From: Planctomycetota bacterium
GTDB lineage: Bacteria > Planctomycetota > Phycisphaerae > WQYP01
NCBI GenBank assembly: GCA_021810145.1
Contig: JAJZJL010000001.1
Span: forward strand, 23,045-87,044
Direction: 5' to 3'
DNA: 64,000 bases
The notes under the pieces are model-generated. The model ran no database searches and was not told where the DNA came from. It saw nothing but the letters and a program-made list of their open reading frames with translations. A program made the translations under genes and the position numbers. Position 1 is the first letter of the stretch, and each line of letters starts with the position of its first letter. Shown piece by piece: positions 4,760 to 11,694 of the stretch.

Positions 4760-5590
4760 TCACATTCGGTACGCTTCCGCGGCTGTGCCGCCCATGATTC
4801 GATCCTGCTGCGCTGCGGAAAGCGGAGCGATAAAATCCTTGACCGCTTTTACCCACTGCTCATACGAGCACGCCAGAAGGCAAACCGGCCAATCGGTTCC
4901 AAACATGAGCCGTTGCGGGCCAAAGGCATGAAGAACCACATCCAGATAGGGCTTAATATCGGCAGGTGTCCAATGGGCGTGGTCCGCTTCGGTCACAACA
5001 CCGGAGAGCTTGCAGTACACATTGGCTCTCTGCGCCAGTTCGGCCATGTGCTTATCCCAGGGGGCAAGAATACGGCCCTTGATCCGCGGCTTGGCGATAT
5101 GATCGACCACAAATATCTGCTCCGGATGCCGATCCACAAACGCAAGGGTCTGGGGCAGGTGCTTTTCAAAAATCAGAATGTCGTACGCCAGGTTAAAGCG
5201 CCGCAATGTTTCAATGCCACGGTTAAAATCCGCGCGCAGCATATAGTTATCATCCGGTTCATCATGCAGCACATGGCGCAGAGCCTTGAGCTTCTTATAC
5301 GCGCTAAAGCGTTCAAGCTGGGCTTGAATATCCGGTGCGGTCAACGGCAACCAGCCGACAACGCCACGCATAAATTCATGCTGTTGCGCCAATTCCAGCA
5401 GCCATCGCGTTTCCTCAACTGATTGCCGGGCCTGCACGGTAACAACCCCATCAATGCCAGCGGCGGTAATGCGGGCATGCAGATCCGCGGGCATAAAATT
5501 TCTCCGCAGAGCCTCCATGCCGGCACCGATCCAGGCATATTCTTCCGGGCGGTATTGCCAGAAGTGGTGATGAGCATCAATTTTCAGCAT
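4760..5590 (-). CDS. amidohydrolase-2 (TIM-barrel metal-dependent hydrolase, PF04909-like)
   Basis: MLKIDAHHHFWQY N-terminus and overall TIM-barrel amidohydrolase pattern. Confidence 0.6.
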   Translation of the reverse strand: MLKIDAHHHFWQYRPEEYAWIGAGMEALRRNFMPADLHARITAAGIDGVVTVQARQSVEETRWLLELAQQHEFMRGVVGWLPLTAPDIQAQLERFSAYKKLKALRHVLHDEPDDNYMLRADFNRGIETLRRFNLAYDILIFEKHLPQTLAFVDRHPEQIFVVDHIAKPRIKGRILAPWDKHMAELAQRANVYCKLSGVVTEADHAHWTPADIKPYLDVVLHAFGPQRLMFGTDWPVCLLACSYEQWVKAVKDFIAPLSAAQQDRIMGGTAAEAYRM

Positions 5591-5616
5591 AAATCTCCAC
5601 AGAAGTGTTGGGCCAT

Positions 5617-6801
5617 TCAGGATGCATGCGTGGCCGCTGGTCCCAGAAAGGGTGTAAGCGGGGAAATATCGGGATGCGGGCGGGCACCTTGTTCAATAAG
5701 ATGTTCAACGGCAATTTTCGCCAGTGTCCGGGAAATGCGGTCCCACTGCGTTTTCGGATTATTCAAAAACCGATGATAATGCTGCAGCGACGCATAAAGT
5801 GTGCGATCACGCAAAATTCCCCACGGCAAGGCCGATCCGGCATCATGCAGTAATTTGGCCACAGCAAAATCCGCATGCGGGTTTACCGGCGCGGAAGCCA
5901 GAAGCTTTTGAATTTGCGCCGGTACGCTTTTCGGCCAGCGGCGGACAAGTTCCCGGCGCACCAGCGGCTCATTCTGAATAACCAGGGCATAGAGATAAAT
6001 CGGCGTTGCGGCGGAAACATCACCCTTGATAAGCAGATGATACTGCTGATCCAGATAATCCATCATCGCTACGCTCTGGCTGGTCAGAGCGCGGGTATTG
6101 CTGATCTGTGCCATCAGCACCGGATTGCGCCGCACGGGCAGTGTTTCTTCAATCACCAGCAGACGCACGGTGCGGGCGGCGGCGGCCACCTGGGCGCAGC
6201 GCAGAAGCCGGAGTGTCAGTTGCACATCGGCCCGTTCCGCCAGGGCGGCAAAGTGTTCGCGATCCTGGGGCGGGGTTGCCCCCAGATAAGCCAGAAGCTG
6301 GCTCATGGTCCAAATCGGGCCGAGTTCGACAATATTATCCGGTGAAGCCAGCGTCATATACTGGGCCAGCGCCCGCTGGGCCACCGGTGAACCGGCACGG
6401 GAGCGGTAGGTCAGGGCGAAGGCTTTAATATCCAGCAGGCGGGCAAGACCATGATGCGGGGTTTGTCTGGCCTTATCCAATAATACATTGGCCAGCGCGA
6501 TCTTATCGGAAAGCCGATGCCGCATGGCGGAAAGAATCTGCGGGGCGTATTTCTTTTCATAACGCCGCCAGTCATTGGCGGAATAAAGCGGCGGAAAGCG
6601 CCCGGGGGCGATCGATGGCACGCTCTGGTCGAGAGTTAGATCCGGCCACAGATTTGAAACGGGAATCGCCGGAGGCAATAGCGGATTATTCGCCAGCGAA
6701 TCACCGGAAGCGGGCATTGGAGCAGCGGCCGCAGAAACGGTTCCGGCCCAGCCGAGGCAGGCCAATATCACAAAAACGCCTACGCGAAAACAATATCTCA
6801 T
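5617..6801 (-). CDS. secreted hypothetical protein with signal peptide (MRYCFRVGVFVILACLGWAGTVSAAAAP); alternative upstream start at 6831
   Basis: Long ORF with hydrophobic N-terminal signal; no recognisable catalytic motif. Confidence 0.5.
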   Translation of the reverse strand: MRYCFRVGVFVILACLGWAGTVSAAAAPMPASGDSLANNPLLPPAIPVSNLWPDLTLDQSVPSIAPGRFPPLYSANDWRRYEKKYAPQILSAMRHRLSDKIALANVLLDKARQTPHHGLARLLDIKAFALTYRSRAGSPVAQRALAQYMTLASPDNIVELGPIWTMSQLLAYLGATPPQDREHFAALAERADVQLTLRLLRCAQVAAAARTVRLLVIEETLPVRRNPVLMAQISNTRALTSQSVAMMDYLDQQYHLLIKGDVSAATPIYLYALVIQNEPLVRRELVRRWPKSVPAQIQKLLASAPVNPHADFAVAKLLHDAGSALPWGILRDRTLYASLQHYHRFLNNPKTQWDRISRTLAKIAVEHLIEQGARPHPDISPLTPFLGPAATHAS

Positions 6802-6904
6802 AAAGTCCTGATATTCGCACCAGCCGGACAATTCCCTGTTATTATGCGATTGCCGCCACGGATAGCAAGCCGCGCGGAGAACGGGATGGTCAGTAGCGTC
6901 AATA

Positions 6905-6945
6905 TATTCAGTATTAGCAGTGTTAGCAGTATTATCAGTAGAGTC
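6905..6945. repeat. four or more copies of an imperfect 9-bp tandem repeat (cagtattag / cagtgttag / cagtattat / cagtagagt)
   Basis: Read directly from the sequence; lies in the divergent intergenic region between the secreted-protein gene and the small ORF/ART pair. Confidence 0.7.
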
Positions 6946-6984
6946 AGAGGCTGGGTTGAGACATGGATGTCGAAATCCCGATGG

Positions 6985-7037
6985 TTATGGGATCACGTGA
7001 TCGGGGAATCTGGAATACGGAATCTGGAATCTGGAAT
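6985..7037. repeat. palindrome TCCCGAT-N8-GATCACGTGATC-GGGGA followed by four copies of a 7-bp tandem repeat TGGAATC (one variant TGGAATAC)
   Basis: Read directly from the sequence at 6985-7037. Confidence 0.7.
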
Positions 7038-7098
7038 CGTGGTGCGCGGGCTTGGGCGCTGTATAATTCGCTTTGGAATTGTTATTCGGGAATGAGCC

Positions 7099-7251
7099 AT
7101 GACGGTTGATGAAATTGTTAAGCAGCACGTGAAAGCGTCGCAGAAGTATCGGAAGTCCATCAAGGGCTCGCCGGAGAAAGCCCGCAAATTTCTGATTAGC
7201 GCGGGCATTCTGGATAAAAACGGCAAACGACTGGCCAGGATTTACCGCTGA
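7099..7251 (+). CDS. small 50-aa protein (MTVDEIVKQHVKASQKYRKSIKGSPEKARKFLISAGILDKNGKRLARIYR), not in the supplied ORF track; candidate antitoxin or partner of the downstream ART
   Basis: ATG at 7099 preceded by an in-frame TGA; TGA stop at 7249-7251, only 3 nt before the ATG of the PARP-like gene (translational coupling); basic lysine-rich peptide. Confidence 0.4.
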   Translation: MTVDEIVKQHVKASQKYRKSIKGSPEKARKFLISAGILDKNGKRLARIYR

Positions 7252-7254
7252 ATC

Positions 7255-7845
7255 ATGCCGCCGACACTCCCCGCATTTGTTCTCGGTTACCACGGATGTG
7301 ATAAATCAGTGGCGGACGCCCTTCTTACTGGTGCAGCCAATCATCTACATTCAAGCCGCAACGAGTATGATTGGCTGGGCCACGGGATATATTTCTGGGA
7401 AGATAGTCCCCAGCGGGCGCTGGATTACGCCCGGCAGCAAATGTCGCGCGCGGGGAGCAAGTCTAATATCCGTGATCCTGCCGTCGTAGGAGCGGTAATC
7501 GATTTAGGGAATTGCCTAAATCTACTTGACGTACAATATATCCGGATTGTCCGCGCTGGCTTTATTGATCTACAAAGCTCGGTTCAAAACGCTGGCGGGG
7601 CCATGCCCGTTAACCGAACACCGGCGGGCAGCACTGAAAAATTACTCCGGGCCTTGGATTGTGCGGTCATTAACACCATTCATGCAAGGCGGGAGGAGGA
7701 CAAGCTTCAACCATTTGATTCCGTCCGCGCGGCGTTTATTGAGGGGAATCCGATCTACGAAGGCGGCGGCTTCTATGAAAAAACGCACATCCAAGTGTGC
7801 GTGCGCGACACTCAAAAGATCAGGGGCTATTTCCGGCCAATCTAG
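7255..7845 (+). CDS. PARP-like (diphtheria-toxin-type H-Y-[E] class) ADP-ribosyltransferase domain protein, 196 aa
   Basis: LGYHGCDKSVADALL...(33 aa)...GHGIYFWEDS aligns with the PARP/tankyrase HGS...GxGIYFA NAD-binding motifs at near-identical spacing; C-terminal FYEKTHIQVCV is a candidate third-motif strand. Confidence 0.55.
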   Translation: MPPTLPAFVLGYHGCDKSVADALLTGAANHLHSSRNEYDWLGHGIYFWEDSPQRALDYARQQMSRAGSKSNIRDPAVVGAVIDLGNCLNLLDVQYIRIVRAGFIDLQSSVQNAGGAMPVNRTPAGSTEKLLRALDCAVINTIHARREEDKLQPFDSVRAAFIEGNPIYEGGGFYEKTHIQVCVRDTQKIRGYFRPI

Positions 7846-8237
7846 GGTTCTCACTACTGCGTTCGGTACAACACGGGGGTGGCAAGCCATCTGGTTTACG
7901 CTTCCGAGAAAACTCGGGACAACGTAAACAATGCGTGACCCATCTCAAGTGAATCCGATCTGGTCGAAATCGCCAGAGCGACCCGTGTGTCGGCAGCACA
8001 TTCAGCAGTGGCAGGATTCTCAATCTATCGAGCACGCCCCGCGCGCCGGGATCTTGGGCGGTGGTGCGTGGCGCGATGCGCCGGAGCGATTGCGCAGCTA
8101 AACGCGTGCTGAGAGCTGCAGGTTGCTCGGTAACGAGAGCGCCTGGCAACGCGAGCATGGGGGCGCTCCTGGCCGACCGGTTCCATGCGGGAGCACCCGG
8201 TGAAATCGGCTTTCCGCCCCACCCCGCTTGTACCTTC

Positions 8238-8960
8238 TCAACGCTTGTGCTTGGCTATCGCGTCGTTGATCTTCAGCCAGAGGCCAGGATACTGCTCCAG
8301 ATTTTTCTCCGTTACATATTGGCTCCGCGGGGCATTCACAATCGGCGCGGGTTTTCTTCCCTTGGAGCCTTTTCCCGGCAGGCTCTTTAGCTCGGGCACC
8401 AACGATTGCCATTCCTCTCTTGATCGCAAAAGCAGCACAACGCAGTTCCTTTTGATTGCCTGCTCCACCAACCAGCCCGAGTAATCTTGCGAAGCGCAAA
8501 ACTTCTGGTCTGGATGCCCAGTGGACACGGCCGAGTGATACGGATGCCATTGGATGACGCAAACCGCTCTCGCCACGGCCTCGTTGCCGTGTTTTTCAGT
8601 TAAAGTCCTCAGCCGCCGGCTCCAATATTCTCCGCCGCAGGTTTTGCTGAACCGTGGATCAAGCAAATAAAATGGATACTTCGACGGCCGGTGCAACATG
8701 CTATCCTTGCAGGCTTTGCGGAATTTGTCGCTTTTGTAGTGAAACAGGTCGGGTTTCTGGAACCCGGGATTCAGGCTCAGAAGTATGACACTTGCGGTAA
8801 GCGGGTTTCCTACATACGGCACCGGCAAAATCTCATGGCGAATCGTTGAGGATTTTGCCCCACGCCGACGTAGCTTATCATTGAGCCTTTCAACAGCGTC
8901 CCAATCCTCTTTCAGCACGTACGGTTCTCTTGGGGGCAGGCCTTTCCAGGGATTATTCAT
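8238..8960 (-). CDS. hypothetical protein with uracil-DNA-glycosylase-superfamily-like motifs (MUG/SMUG-like VILLSLNPGF and WHPYHS); start taken at MNNPWKG
   Basis: ILPVPYVGNPLTASVILLSLNPGF resembles UDG motif 1 (hhhhG[IM]NPG) and VIQWHPYHSAV resembles motif 2 (HPSP); spacing about 100 aa. Confidence 0.4.
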   Translation of the reverse strand: MNNPWKGLPPREPYVLKEDWDAVERLNDKLRRRGAKSSTIRHEILPVPYVGNPLTASVILLSLNPGFQKPDLFHYKSDKFRKACKDSMLHRPSKYPFYLLDPRFSKTCGGEYWSRRLRTLTEKHGNEAVARAVCVIQWHPYHSAVSTGHPDQKFCASQDYSGWLVEQAIKRNCVVLLLRSREEWQSLVPELKSLPGKGSKGRKPAPIVNAPRSQYVTEKNLEQYPGLWLKINDAIAKHKR

Positions 8961-9046
8961 CGTTGGACTCCACAATCGTTTACCACATGACTTAAATAAA
9001 GTAGTGCAAGTCACTCTGGCAGTCAAATGATACGCGATCAGCTCGG

Positions 9047-9874
9047 TTGCAGCATTCGGCCTCGCGCGCGATGATCCAATTCATGGCAACACGTAAACAA
9101 TGGACACACGATGACCTGCTGGTGGCGTTCCGGCTTTATTGCCGCACGCCCTTCGGGCGGCTGCACCGGCTGAACCCGGAAATCATCAAACTCTCAGAGT
9201 TGATGGGACGCACACCATCGTCGGTGGGAATGAAGGCCTGTAATTTCGCCAGCCTGGACCCGGTTCAGCAAGCCCGGCAAATCAAGGGCCTCGGAAACGT
9301 CAGCCGTGATGACCGACAACTTTGGGAAGCATTTCAAGAAAATGCGGAAGCCACAGCCGCCGAAGCGGAAGCCGCCTATGCACGGCTCGTTGGGAACCAA
9401 ACGCCGCCCGCCGAAAATGAATTAGCTGCCGACGCCGAACTCGTGCCGCCAACCGGCCCGACGGAAGAATTGCGTACGGTTCGCGCCCGGCGCGTGCAGG
9501 GATTTTTCCGCGCGGCGGTACTGGCCAGCTATAATTTTCGATGTGCGATATCCGGAATCGCCCTTCCGGAACTACTCAATGCGAGTCACATCATACCTTG
9601 GCAGAAAGACACGAAACGCCGCGCTGATCCGCGCAACGGAATTGCCCTGAACGCCCTTTACGACCGGGCATTTGATCGCGGCTTAATTACATTCGATGAA
9701 TCGTTCCGGTTGGTTCTCTCCGCGCGGCTGAGGGCTAAGGCTAAAAGCCAGAGCGTGCCGGAGCAACTAAAACACTGGTTCTACACACTGGAGGGGACGA
9801 AGATAAATCTCCCCAGACGCTTCACCCCCGATCCAGACGCATTGGCATTTCACCGCGAGACAATTTTTCGTTGA
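9047..9874 (+). CDS. HNH endonuclease (PF13391/HNH_2-like, WTxxELLxAxxLY N-domain plus C-terminal HNH)
   Basis: WTHDDLLVAFRLYCRTPFGRLHRLNPEIIKLSELMGRTPSSVGMKACNFASLDP N-domain and FRCAISGI...NASHIIPW...NGIALNALYDRAFDRGLITF C-terminal nuclease motif. Confidence 0.7.
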   Translation: MQHSASRAMIQFMATRKQWTHDDLLVAFRLYCRTPFGRLHRLNPEIIKLSELMGRTPSSVGMKACNFASLDPVQQARQIKGLGNVSRDDRQLWEAFQENAEATAAEAEAAYARLVGNQTPPAENELAADAELVPPTGPTEELRTVRARRVQGFFRAAVLASYNFRCAISGIALPELLNASHIIPWQKDTKRRADPRNGIALNALYDRAFDRGLITFDESFRLVLSARLRAKAKSQSVPEQLKHWFYTLEGTKINLPRRFTPDPDALAFHRETIFR

Positions 9875-10015
9875 TGCGGCCGGGCGAACGGCGGAGCTGC
9901 GGGAGCCGCCCGTGGCGCGCGTTCAAAGGCTCGACGCTCCAGGATTCCCCGTTGGCCAACCTACCGGCAGAAAAAGGGTTGGACGCATAAATGCTAATGT
10001 GTGCAAAACACACGC

Positions 10016-10060
10016 GTGAGGGCGAAGCAATAAATGCGGGCTGGGTACCCTCACTTTTTT
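10016..10060 (+). terminator. candidate rho-independent terminator: GTGAGGG...CCCTCAC stem followed by TTTTTT
   Basis: Stem arms at 10016-10022 and 10048-10054, T6 at 10055-10060; sits between the convergent HNH and PIN-like genes. Confidence 0.45.
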
Positions 10061-10073
10061 ATTGCGCATGATC

Positions 10074-10628
10074 CTATGGCCCATCGGTCATTCCCGCGCC
10101 GCCGAGCTTTTCCTGAAATCCTTTTTTCGTCCACTCTTCCCGGTATTGTAGCGTGAATTTGCGCTGCAGTTTCCGCCCTGACCCTATCCGCTGAAGTATT
10201 TCCTCAAGTGAAATGCCCTGCTCCGCCCGGCTAAGATTTCCCAGAACACGGAATACGATTTTATCCGCGGAACAGATTTGGCACTCATCGGATTGTCGAA
10301 GCAGGTACGCCAGAGATTCCGTCTCGCCGGGGTCAAGTTTTTCAAAATATCCGGGTGAAAATCTGGCGCGAAGGCCGCTGATATCGGTTGGTGTAAGGCT
10401 GAACACGTTAATGGCACGGGATTCGGTGAACGCGGACAGATTAATGTCGTGGCGGTTGCCCTCGGCATCTTCGAAGAATTGGGCCTCATCAATGACCGTC
10501 TGCGCAAGGTGTATATCACATGCGGCAACGATGCGATCCCACAATCCATGGCGCGATATTTCGATTATGACATTGGCATCAAACAGAAGAAACCTGAACT
10601 TCTTCACCGTTCGGAACCTCCTGTTCAA
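10074..10628 (-). CDS. DUF4411/PIN-like nuclease-domain protein, partner of the upstream HTH-ImmA regulator
   Basis: FRFLLFDANVIIE acidic PIN-like N-terminus; overlaps the upstream ImmA-family gene by about 30-50 nt (co-operonic); DUF4411 is habitually linked to COG2856 proteins. Confidence 0.5.
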   Translation of the reverse strand: MNRRFRTVKKFRFLLFDANVIIEISRHGLWDRIVAACDIHLAQTVIDEAQFFEDAEGNRHDINLSAFTESRAINVFSLTPTDISGLRARFSPGYFEKLDPGETESLAYLLRQSDECQICSADKIVFRVLGNLSRAEQGISLEEILQRIGSGRKLQRKFTLQYREEWTKKGFQEKLGGAGMTDGP

Positions 10629-11694
10629 TGAAGCGCATGGCTTGCTGCCGTGAAATATTCAGATACTCCGCGAAGCGGCCGATCGCCATTTCGCCGCGGC
10701 GCATGGCCCTGACTGCCAGCGCACGGTAGCGTGCCGGCCACGGATGAAGGGGCTTGCGGTCCTCACGATCCTCAAGCAACGGCGACAGTGTTCTGGCCCT
10801 TTCGATATCCCGTCTGGTTTGATCGGCGCCGGCGTGCCCACGGCCGTACAAAATATGCATGCGCCACAGGACAGAATCCACTGATACGTCGAACTCGCGC
10901 GCAACGTCGTGTAACGACTCAATTGTTATTTTGTCACTATGTGTGCGGGCACTGATGGCGGAGCGGAATGGATCAGCGGGAAGCAAAAGGTTGGCCGCGA
11001 AGCATGTGGCCAACTTTTCCTCCCACTCGCGGGTAATTATTTGCTCCCCAGTGGTTGGATGAAATAGCTGCCAGGTCAGCAGATGAAACAGCTCATGCGC
11101 CAGATCATGGTTACGTCGCCATCGGGTATTTTGAGAATTCAGCAGAATGGCCGCACCAAGGGAATCCGTGACGGTCGCCGCCGCGGTACCGGAAGGTTCA
11201 AAACTCAGGTGAAAAATCTTCACCCCGCAGACTTCCTCAAGCGTAGCCAACAGGGACAGGCCGGGGCGGTCGCCCAGTTGCAATTCACAGCGAACGCGCT
11301 TGGCCAATTCTTCGGCTTGTGCGTACGAATAAGTTGCGGGATCGCCGGTGGCACAGGGCAGGCTGATTGGCGCAGATTCGTCACACCATATTTCGAGGTT
11401 ATGGTATTGCTCACAGAGGCGGAGGAATTGAACCTCAATTTCCGCCGCATTCTTCTCCGGCCGTTCGCGCCACAATACTGTTGGCTGGACTTCCAATGGG
11501 CCTTCAGTAAGAAAGAAAGCGACCGAGCGTTTGCAGGCGTCGGCCAATTTGCGCAATTGGCTCAGGCTCGGCTCCCGCTTTCCATTCTCAAATTCCGAAA
11601 GCGATGATTCACCAATACCGGTCCTTTCTCTAACCTGCGCCAGCGAAAGGTTGGCTCGTTGTCGTGCGTACTTAATACGGTCGTGAATTGCCAT
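10579..11694 (-). CDS. XRE-family HTH transcriptional regulator fused to an ImmA/IrrE (COG2856) zinc metallopeptidase domain
   Basis: N-terminal IKYARQRANLSLAQVRERTGIGESSLSEFENGKREPSLSQLRKLADAC helix-turn-helix; HDLAHELFHLL contains the HExxH zinc motif; FAANLLLP is the ImmA family C-motif. Confidence 0.8.
   Translation of the reverse strand: MAIHDRIKYARQRANLSLAQVRERTGIGESSLSEFENGKREPSLSQLRKLADACKRSVAFFLTEGPLEVQPTVLWRERPEKNAAEIEVQFLRLCEQYHNLEIWCDESAPISLPCATGDPATYSYAQAEELAKRVRCELQLGDRPGLSLLATLEEVCGVKIFHLSFEPSGTAAATVTDSLGAAILLNSQNTRWRRNHDLAHELFHLLTWQLFHPTTGEQIITREWEEKLATCFAANLLLPADPFRSAISARTHSDKITIESLHDVAREFDVSVDSVLWRMHILYGRGHAGADQTRRDIERARTLSPLLEDREDRKPLHPWPARYRALAVRAMRRGEMAIGRFAEYLNISRQQAMRFIEQEVPNGEEVQVSSV

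Follow-up and report, generated by a model that had tools for sequence, protein, structure and literature searches.

A putative toxin–antitoxin cassette of a minimal ADP-ribosyltransferase-fold protein and a 50-residue partner, found in a Planctomycetota genome and on mobile elements

The Two-Gene Cassette of the Planctomycetota Contig

A 64,000-nt stretch of contig JAJZJL010000001.1 of a Planctomycetota bacterium (assembly GCA_021810145.1, positions 23,045 to 87,044), hereafter referred to as the window, carries two small co-oriented genes, the second of which encodes a 196-amino-acid (aa) protein with the predicted fold of an ADP-ribosyltransferase (ART). The two genes are interpreted here as a probable toxin–antitoxin (TA) cassette, the ART-fold protein being the putative toxin and its small partner the putative antitoxin. 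The cassette consists of the following elements:

7099–7251, forward strand: small partner gene, 50 aa, ATG start, TGA stop at 7249–7251, from the open reading frame (ORF) listing
7255–7845, forward strand: ART-fold gene, 196 aa, single domain, proposed toxin
7249–7257, forward strand: stop–start junction TGA-atc-ATG, both ORFs sharing one frame, read from the sequence

The small ORF encodes the peptide MTVDEIVKQHVKASQKYRKSIKGSPEKARKFLISAGILDKNGKRLARIYR. A preliminary description of this locus had placed its stop 3 nt before the ATG of the ART gene, and the position, the peptide and the coordinates were all found to be as quoted there. The junction is consistent with translational coupling of the small ORF and the ART gene.

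Pairing of the Two Genes across Genomes

The association of the two genes was followed in a sample of 80 genome loci, each with up to 6 kb of flanking sequence, from Planctomycetota, Verrucomicrobiota, Bacteroidota, Bacillota, Pseudomonadota, Spirochaetota, Acidobacteriota, and other phyla. A hidden Markov model (HMM) of the partner, built from 24 ORFs and run on the six-frame translations of every locus, matches directly upstream of the ART gene in 74 of the 80 loci and nowhere else in them; five of the remaining loci have visibly related, more divergent upstream ORFs, and in one (L078) the partner is frameshift-fused to the ART gene. The upstream partner ORFs of the 80 loci encode 46–70 aa. 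Between the partner stop and the start of the ART gene the median distance is 2 nt; it lies between −4 and +10 nt in 51 of 73 loci, with the two genes overlapping in 28 of the 73. The proposal that the small ORF is a genuine coupled partner is borne out by this conservation beside the ART gene and by the short median gap.

The same pairing is seen in viral sequences. The ART gene is present in 60 contigs of IMG/VR, and 52 of the 58 with enough upstream sequence have a partner recognised by the HMM in the upstream position; the others carry divergent partner copies or show the reversed gene order. The reversed order, with the ART gene followed by that of the partner, characterises a divergent clade of four IMG/VR contigs (L137:1475–2234, L138, L139:3980–4732, and L140:3983–4756) and is also the order of the cmdT–cmdA genes. 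Since the pairing is kept under inverted gene order, a mere leader peptide is ruled out and a protein–protein partnership is argued for. The two genes are obligatorily paired and coupled, whichever of them comes first.

All-against-all clustering of the ORFs within ±3.5 kb of the 80 loci detected no third conserved gene, whether for a chaperone, a macrodomain protein, a NADAR protein, or a regulator. The organisation is that of a generic type II TA module, i.e., two co-oriented, nearly overlapping small genes that are paired irrespective of their neighbourhood. Two candidate natural fusions of the partner with the ART protein were rejected. In L078:5704–6594, from a Verrucomicrobiae metagenome-assembled genome (MAG), the two ORFs are joined only through a frameshift within the C-terminal motif of the partner, where NGFI and RAIIRSG meet at the frameshift site and a relative has NGFITRDNKVGKHYR; the cause is probably an indel error of long-read sequencing and not a true fusion. 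The N-terminal extension of P0278 is an unrelated read-through.

The 50-Residue Partner Protein

The partner encoded in the window has a net charge of +10. Its AlphaFold2 (AF2) model, with a predicted local distance difference test (pLDDT) score of 86, comprises predicted helices at residues 3–21 and 25–34 followed by a short hairpin and a tail. The hairpin and tail segment carries the conserved motif A[RK]xFLxxAGIxxKxGxLxxxY[RK], in which G36 and G42 are invariant and L32, L45, and Y49 occur in at least 90% of the sequences in a cross-phylum comparison. Most partners have a strong positive charge: the median net charge is +7.5 and the range −10 to +12. Those of rhizobia have acidic tails ending in ...EEAAAA.

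Database homologues of the partner number 73, are 48–88 aa long and are all annotated as hypothetical; none is part of a larger protein. Of three such homologues whose genomic context was inspected, two adjoin a protein of about 200 aa with no Pfam domain, and one, a weak match, is an orphan. No Pfam family was found for 24 partner sequences, and a PADLOC search relaxed to E ≤ 10 gave no match for 24 family members.

With its protein sequence conserved across phyla, the small ORF is a real gene, maintained as a protein. An explanation in which it would be a leader peptide, a regulatory upstream ORF, or a chance ORF, and the ART a non-toxic housekeeping enzyme acting by itself or a pseudo-ART without activity, can appeal to its length of only 50 aa, below the usual gene-calling cut-offs, and to the frequent location of the ART gene among housekeeping genes. 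This explanation is very improbable: besides the cross-phylum conservation, the HMM matches the small ORF only beside the ART gene and a fold is predicted for its product, the small ORF persists downstream of the ART gene in the four viral contigs, the NAD-site residues of the ART are under strong constraint, and the patchy plasmid and provirus distribution described below is ill-suited to a housekeeping role.

Fold and Active Site of the ART-Fold Protein

The 196-aa protein has no family in Pfam or NCBIfam at E ≤ 1, and a sequence search of the PDB, with the single protein or with the family profile, gave no meaningful relative. It is matched over its full length by phrog_14664 (E 5.5e-24), to which no function is assigned. 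The AF2 model built from 27 relatives has a pLDDT of 89.4 and a predicted template modelling score (pTM) of 0.83. In a Foldseek search of the PDB, the catalytic domains of PARP1 and PARP2 take the top ranks (E ~1e-3), and the search of BFVD returned ART-PolyVal-like viral domains. The preliminary description had expected such a comparison to tell PARP-type enzymes from RES and DarT; PARP1 and PARP2 do come first and DarT scores only 4.0–4.5; the fold scores also favour a RES-like enzyme.

The motifs HGC and GHGIYFWE, recognised earlier as an NAD-binding signature, are located at residues 13–15 and 42–49, respectively; they had been described correctly except for their spacing, which is 26 residues between C15 and G42 and not 33. 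The offset from H13 to Y46 is 33, versus 34 from H862 to Y896 in PARP1. In an hhalign alignment of the family with a hand-entered sequence of the PARP1 ART domain, H862 is the counterpart of H13 and Y896 that of Y46, and the next strand, GAVIDLGNCLNL, is aligned to GEVALGNMYEL. H13, G14, and Y46 do not vary among members with identities as low as 28%, and the same is true, at 28–30% identity, of W40, D135, R158, F161, and H178, while E163 and Q180 are near-invariant. The confident model, the pairing with PARP1, and the residue invariance make a predicted ART fold with an intact NAD site (H13, Y46) well supported.

The glutamate of GIYFWE, E49, which the preliminary description had included in the signature, does not occupy the position of the catalytic glutamate. 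Judged by strand order, the strand bearing H178 and Q180 corresponds to the strand of PARP1 E988 and diphtheria toxin (DT) E148; E163 is the better-conserved acid among the candidates for the third catalytic residue. The model includes a helical insert at residues 94–148. Domains of the helical regulatory, WGR, macro, and receptor-binding types are all absent from the protein.

Unusual architectures were noted in the family members P0289 (692 aa), P0203, and P0318, and in several members the D135 helix and the R158 strand are separated by an additional helical segment of about 100 aa. One protein begins with the ART domain, continues with YD/RHS-type repeats and has a region containing "WHHH" at its C-terminus, which may reflect a polymorphic-toxin context or a mis-assembly.

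Two ART homologues, from a Chitinophagaceae MAG (L019:2794–3390) and from Sphingobacteriales 44-61 (L049:6001–6600), share an in-frame TAG at codon 22, in the context VVN*LINGL, where the TAG is followed by CTA or CTG; the two genes are 72% identical in DNA. Along the 177 codons past the TAG the ratio of nonsynonymous to synonymous substitution rates (dN/dS) is 0.12, with a dS of 1.8, so that purifying selection still acts on the downstream codons, a pattern that points to programmed readthrough or split expression and away from a dead gene. In the first of these homologues HGY replaces HGC.

Size, Distribution and Mobility of the Family

An exhaustive HMMER search recovered 3,583 clusters (50% identity) of ART-family proteins at E ≤ 1e-3 and 2,372 at E ≤ 1e-10, and a word-indexed search recovered 3,547 proteins, all of them unnamed and lacking a Pfam domain. 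The family is carried by at least 586 species-representative genomes of many phyla. The 139 nearest neighbours of its genes span 130 Pfam families, mostly of housekeeping function, with five integrases and scattered defence genes.

Plasmids with a member of the ART family number 70, and 35 of these are conjugative. In plasmids of the Pseudomonas syringae group, including one of P. amygdali, the pair is located between resolvase and partition genes and the replication initiator; the proteins of a P. syringae pair have the accessions WP_005759896 and WP_005759898. Other carriers are plasmids of Rhizobium, Sinorhizobium, and Agrobacterium, a 13-kb plasmid of Synechococcus, and an 8.5-kb mobilisable plasmid of Acinetobacter pittii (L087, NZ_CP077241.1) with the complete cassette; the RefSeq label for both genes is "hypothetical protein". 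Among 50,697 records of sequenced phages there is one partial match. The distribution over at least 586 species genomes, 70 plasmids, and 60 viral contigs is patchy and horizontally transferred, as is that of type II TA systems. With its plasmids, viral contigs, and varied neighbours, the pair behaves as a mobile two-gene cassette.

Surroundings of the Cassette in the Window

Three further features lie upstream of the small ORF:

7062–7067, forward strand: perfect TATAAT, 31 nt 5' of the ATG of the small ORF, read from the sequence
7005–7038, forward strand: tandem repeat GGAATCT, 4.9 copies, found with TRF, just 5' of the TATAAT and idiosyncratic to the window lineage
6909–6940, forward strand: tandem repeat CAGTATTAG, 9 bp, 3.6 copies, found with TRF, intergenic

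The TATAAT at 7062–7067 is a possible −10 element without a matching −35, and a consensus scan called no sigma-70-type two-hexamer promoter on the forward strand upstream of the cassette. Neither direct nor inverted repeats are enriched over shuffles upstream of the module in the 80 loci, and the upstream tandem repeats were on this basis ruled out as an operator-like feature of the whole family. Of the tandem-repeat-rich promoter proposed earlier, the repeats are thus real, but they are not part of the conserved module and no sigma-70 promoter was called with them. An Rfam scan of 6500–8400 gave only a sub-threshold match to isrB (E 0.28), and a type III-like RNA antitoxin at the locus was thereby ruled out.

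Housekeeping genes (PheT, NuoC, an amidohydrolase) lie to the left of the cassette. A 404-aa ORF at 5617–6831 on the reverse strand diverges from it; the product has a hydrophobic, signal-like N-terminus, matches no family and is 99.5% identical in L001, a contig of a near-identical Planctomycetota MAG. On the right follow, in this order, genes for a 262-aa Brig1-like protein, an HNH protein (PADLOC HNH, E 1e-88), a 184-aa protein, and a helix-turn-helix (HTH)–ImmA/IrrE protein, and a resistance-nodulation-division (RND) efflux operon. Brig1 is an anti-phage DNA glycosylase. The 262-aa protein (8238–9026, reverse strand) has no Pfam match, and its match to NCBIfam antiviral_Brig1 is sub-threshold (E 4.1e-10, 39.5 bits versus a cut-off of 230). 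The gene of the 184-aa protein (10074–10628, reverse strand; no family match) overlaps the end of that for a 370-aa fusion of HTH_3 with Peptidase_M78 (ImmA/IrrE) at 10579–11694 on the same strand, and the two may form another two-gene accessory module.

Contig L001 matches the window at 96.9% over 5409–8329 and then diverges fully, about 480 nt past the ART gene; beyond this point it encodes a C5 cytosine DNA methylase and a HATPase_c_3 protein (L001:2915–7786). Such a match followed by different genes places the cassette at the edge of a strain-variable hotspot of the defence type, and the accessory patch with nuclease and regulator genes recognised earlier is confirmed, other genes being present in L001 beyond 8329.

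The cassette of the A. pittii plasmid (L087, 3309–6694) is flanked by genes for an HNH endonuclease, an HTH protein, and ImmA/IrrE, as in the window at 7099–11694. The window HNH protein is 33% identical to that of the plasmid over 129 aa, and 41% identical to the product of an ORF located 3 kb from the ART gene in an Opitutaceae MAG (L034:9583–10371). Since the association of the cassette with HNH, HTH, and ImmA/IrrE genes occurs in only 3 of ~90 loci, it may be a coincidence or a loose island link.

Relation to Named Systems

The closest named relative is CmdT, the toxin of CmdTAC (PD-T4-9), an E. coli phage-defence system made up of toxin, antitoxin, and chaperone (PMC11618068; bioRxiv 10.1101/2024.02.24.581848). 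The PADLOC model PD-T4-9_A matches the ART protein of the window with E 6.8e-6, residues 9–66 being aligned to profile positions 6–61 of 191, and was matched by all 27 relatives tested, with a best E of 3.5e-8; the reversed-order clade also matches it, the longest match extending to profile position 101. The first gene of PD-T4-9 is cmdT of the cmdTAC operon (supplement of PMC9519451). PD-T4-9_A is taken as CmdT for this reason and because the match falls in the ART region. The alignment sets Y46 near Y41 of CmdT, which is a catalytic residue of this enzyme (PMC11618068), whose target is the N6-adenine in GA of single-stranded RNA (PMC11618068). By its sequence, the ART protein is a distant homologue of CmdT in the NAD-binding half and not a member of the CmdT family.

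The likeness to CmdT extends to the single-domain organisation of about 190 aa, the H-Y-[E/D/Q] clade typified by diphtheria toxin and PARP, and the presence of a small helical partner in the operon; the partner of some clades, like CmdA, ends in Ala-Ala. The architectures differ. CmdA is encoded downstream and has a C-terminal chaperone-addiction (ChAD) extension, whereas the partner described here is a 50-aa protein encoded usually upstream and lacks the extension; no gene for a SecB-like chaperone (CmdC) recurs within ±3.5 kb in the 80 loci, the neighbours in the window being the Brig1-like and HNH genes; and the cassette family has a much wider taxonomic range than CmdTAC. The earlier statement that the pair is not CmdTAC is therefore right as regards the architecture, but the sole sequence-level link of the ART to any named system is to CmdT.

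The RES-Xre systems (ParST, MbcTA, NatRT, and RES-Xre of P. putida) differ in having R-E-S instead of H...Y; in the partner, no HTH, Xre-type, or DUF2384 domain was detected by Pfam in 24 sequences, and two helices and a tail are predicted. The same TA logic could operate with the ART as an NAD+ degrader (an NADase or NAD+ phosphorylase, in the manner of MbcT and NatT among the RES toxins), arresting growth through NAD+ depletion, and the fold scores favouring a RES-like enzyme speak for this. It is quite unlikely, given that the RES domain (Pfam PF08808) is not matched by the ART even at E ≤ 1, that the family keeps the transferase H...Y of PARP, DT, and CmdT and not R-E-S, that its sole sequence-level relative, CmdT, is an RNA ADP-ribosyltransferase, and that the sequence identity is 6–12% to RES structures versus 18–21% to PARPs.

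PARP/ARTD enzymes (PARP1, PARP2, PARP4, and tankyrase), diphtheria toxin, and exotoxin A differ in a C-terminal half that cannot be aligned by sequence with that of the ART protein, and the PARP catalytic domain (Pfam PF00644) does not match the window ART, which is no canonical PARP. DarTG resembles the cassette as an ART toxin in a two-gene TA or phage-defence module with variable neighbourhoods, but it combines a DUF4433 toxin with a macrodomain antitoxin, DarG, a combination that the cassette lacks. With the defining features of both systems absent, namely the RES domain of Pfam and the DarT and DarG components, the distinction made earlier from DarTG and from ParST/RES-Xre stands. A Legionella ART family represented by Lmac_3114 has Hxx/FFW/xxE motifs and is linked to adenylosuccinate synthetase (PMC12522546); it was rejected as an identity of the cassette ART, adenylosuccinate synthetase being absent at the cassette loci.

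Proposed Mode of Action

The most plausible interpretation, considered rather likely, is that of an autonomous, horizontally mobile type II-like TA cassette composed of an ART toxin and a co-translated mini-antitoxin. Catalytic activity, target, and trigger are presumed, while toxicity, neutralisation by the small protein, and a role in defence are deduced from the anatomy and distribution of the cassette. The 196-aa enzyme would be a minimal ART of the H-Y clade, binding NAD+ via H13 and Y46 and either moving ADP-ribose onto an essential macromolecule or otherwise consuming NAD+; by analogy with CmdT and DarT, single-stranded nucleic acid is the best-guess target. The co-translated 50-aa protein would bind the ART, probably through its conserved C-terminal segment G36...Y49, and keep it inactive. 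Loss of the partner, through proteolysis, plasmid loss, or infection, would free the ART and lead to growth arrest, with plasmid addiction and/or abortive phage defence as the outcome. The C-terminal Ala-Ala of CmdA marks this protein for ClpXP (bioRxiv 10.1101/2024.02.24.581848), and by analogy the ...EEAAAA ends of the rhizobial partners hint at a proteolytically labile antitoxin, the sole pointer of this kind.

Several points weigh against this interpretation. Its usually basic charge sets the partner apart from acidic antitoxins that mimic nucleic acids, and no known fold or family of antitoxins matches it. The similarity to CmdT is limited to the first 55–100 residues of the ART protein, and the third catalytic residue has two candidates, E163 or H178/Q180. 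Most chromosomal neighbours are housekeeping and not defence genes, and no description of the family was found in the literature by accession or keyword. Moreover, CmdT depends on CmdA for its folding and shows no toxicity on its own (PMC11618068); by this example, a small partner can be a helper and not an inhibitor.

The last point leads to a different arrangement, in which the small protein would be an obligatory folding, activating, or targeting subunit, e.g., a basic nucleic-acid-binding adaptor, comparable to CmdA in its folding role or to HPF1 for PARP1. The pair would then be a two-subunit effector under some other form of control, with a role in defence or, on plasmids and phages, in anti-defence. 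The basic charge of the partner and the folding role of CmdA favour this arrangement, which is nevertheless unlikely. The charge is not conserved, varying from −10 to +12 with acidic tails in rhizobia, which argues against an essential nucleic-acid-binding role of the partner; no conserved sensor or regulator gene is found nearby; the position of the small gene first and in tight coupling is the classic type II layout; and the family is rare in sequenced phages.

Significance of the Family

With each of the ART toxins DarT, ParT, and CmdT, a cellular target and a defence mechanism not known before came to light. The family described here is far more widespread than the absence of Pfam, NCBIfam, and functional PHROG annotation would imply, and it is present on plasmids of agricultural or clinical relevance, in P. 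syringae, Rhizobium, Agrobacterium, Acinetobacter, and Ralstonia. Its partner gene is systematically hidden by gene callers and by 60-aa ORF cut-offs.

The cassette of the window may possibly, though this is proposed with some hesitation, be the founding example of a large undescribed TA or defence family, with about 3,600 clusters at 50% identity and a range that takes in most bacterial phyla, plasmids, and proviruses. In this family, a CmdT/PARP-like ART would be combined with a new two-helix antitoxin of 50 residues, with no chaperone involved and with either gene first. A possible His or Gln as the third catalytic residue, a target new for ARTs, and TAG readthrough setting the dosage in a sub-clade of Bacteroidota would belong to the same picture. 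If the two genes do form a TA pair, CmdTA would gain a relative that needs no chaperone, the partner would represent a new mini-antitoxin fold, and the ART would be a compact NAD-dependent modifier, the target of which could be RNA, DNA, protein, or NAD+ itself.
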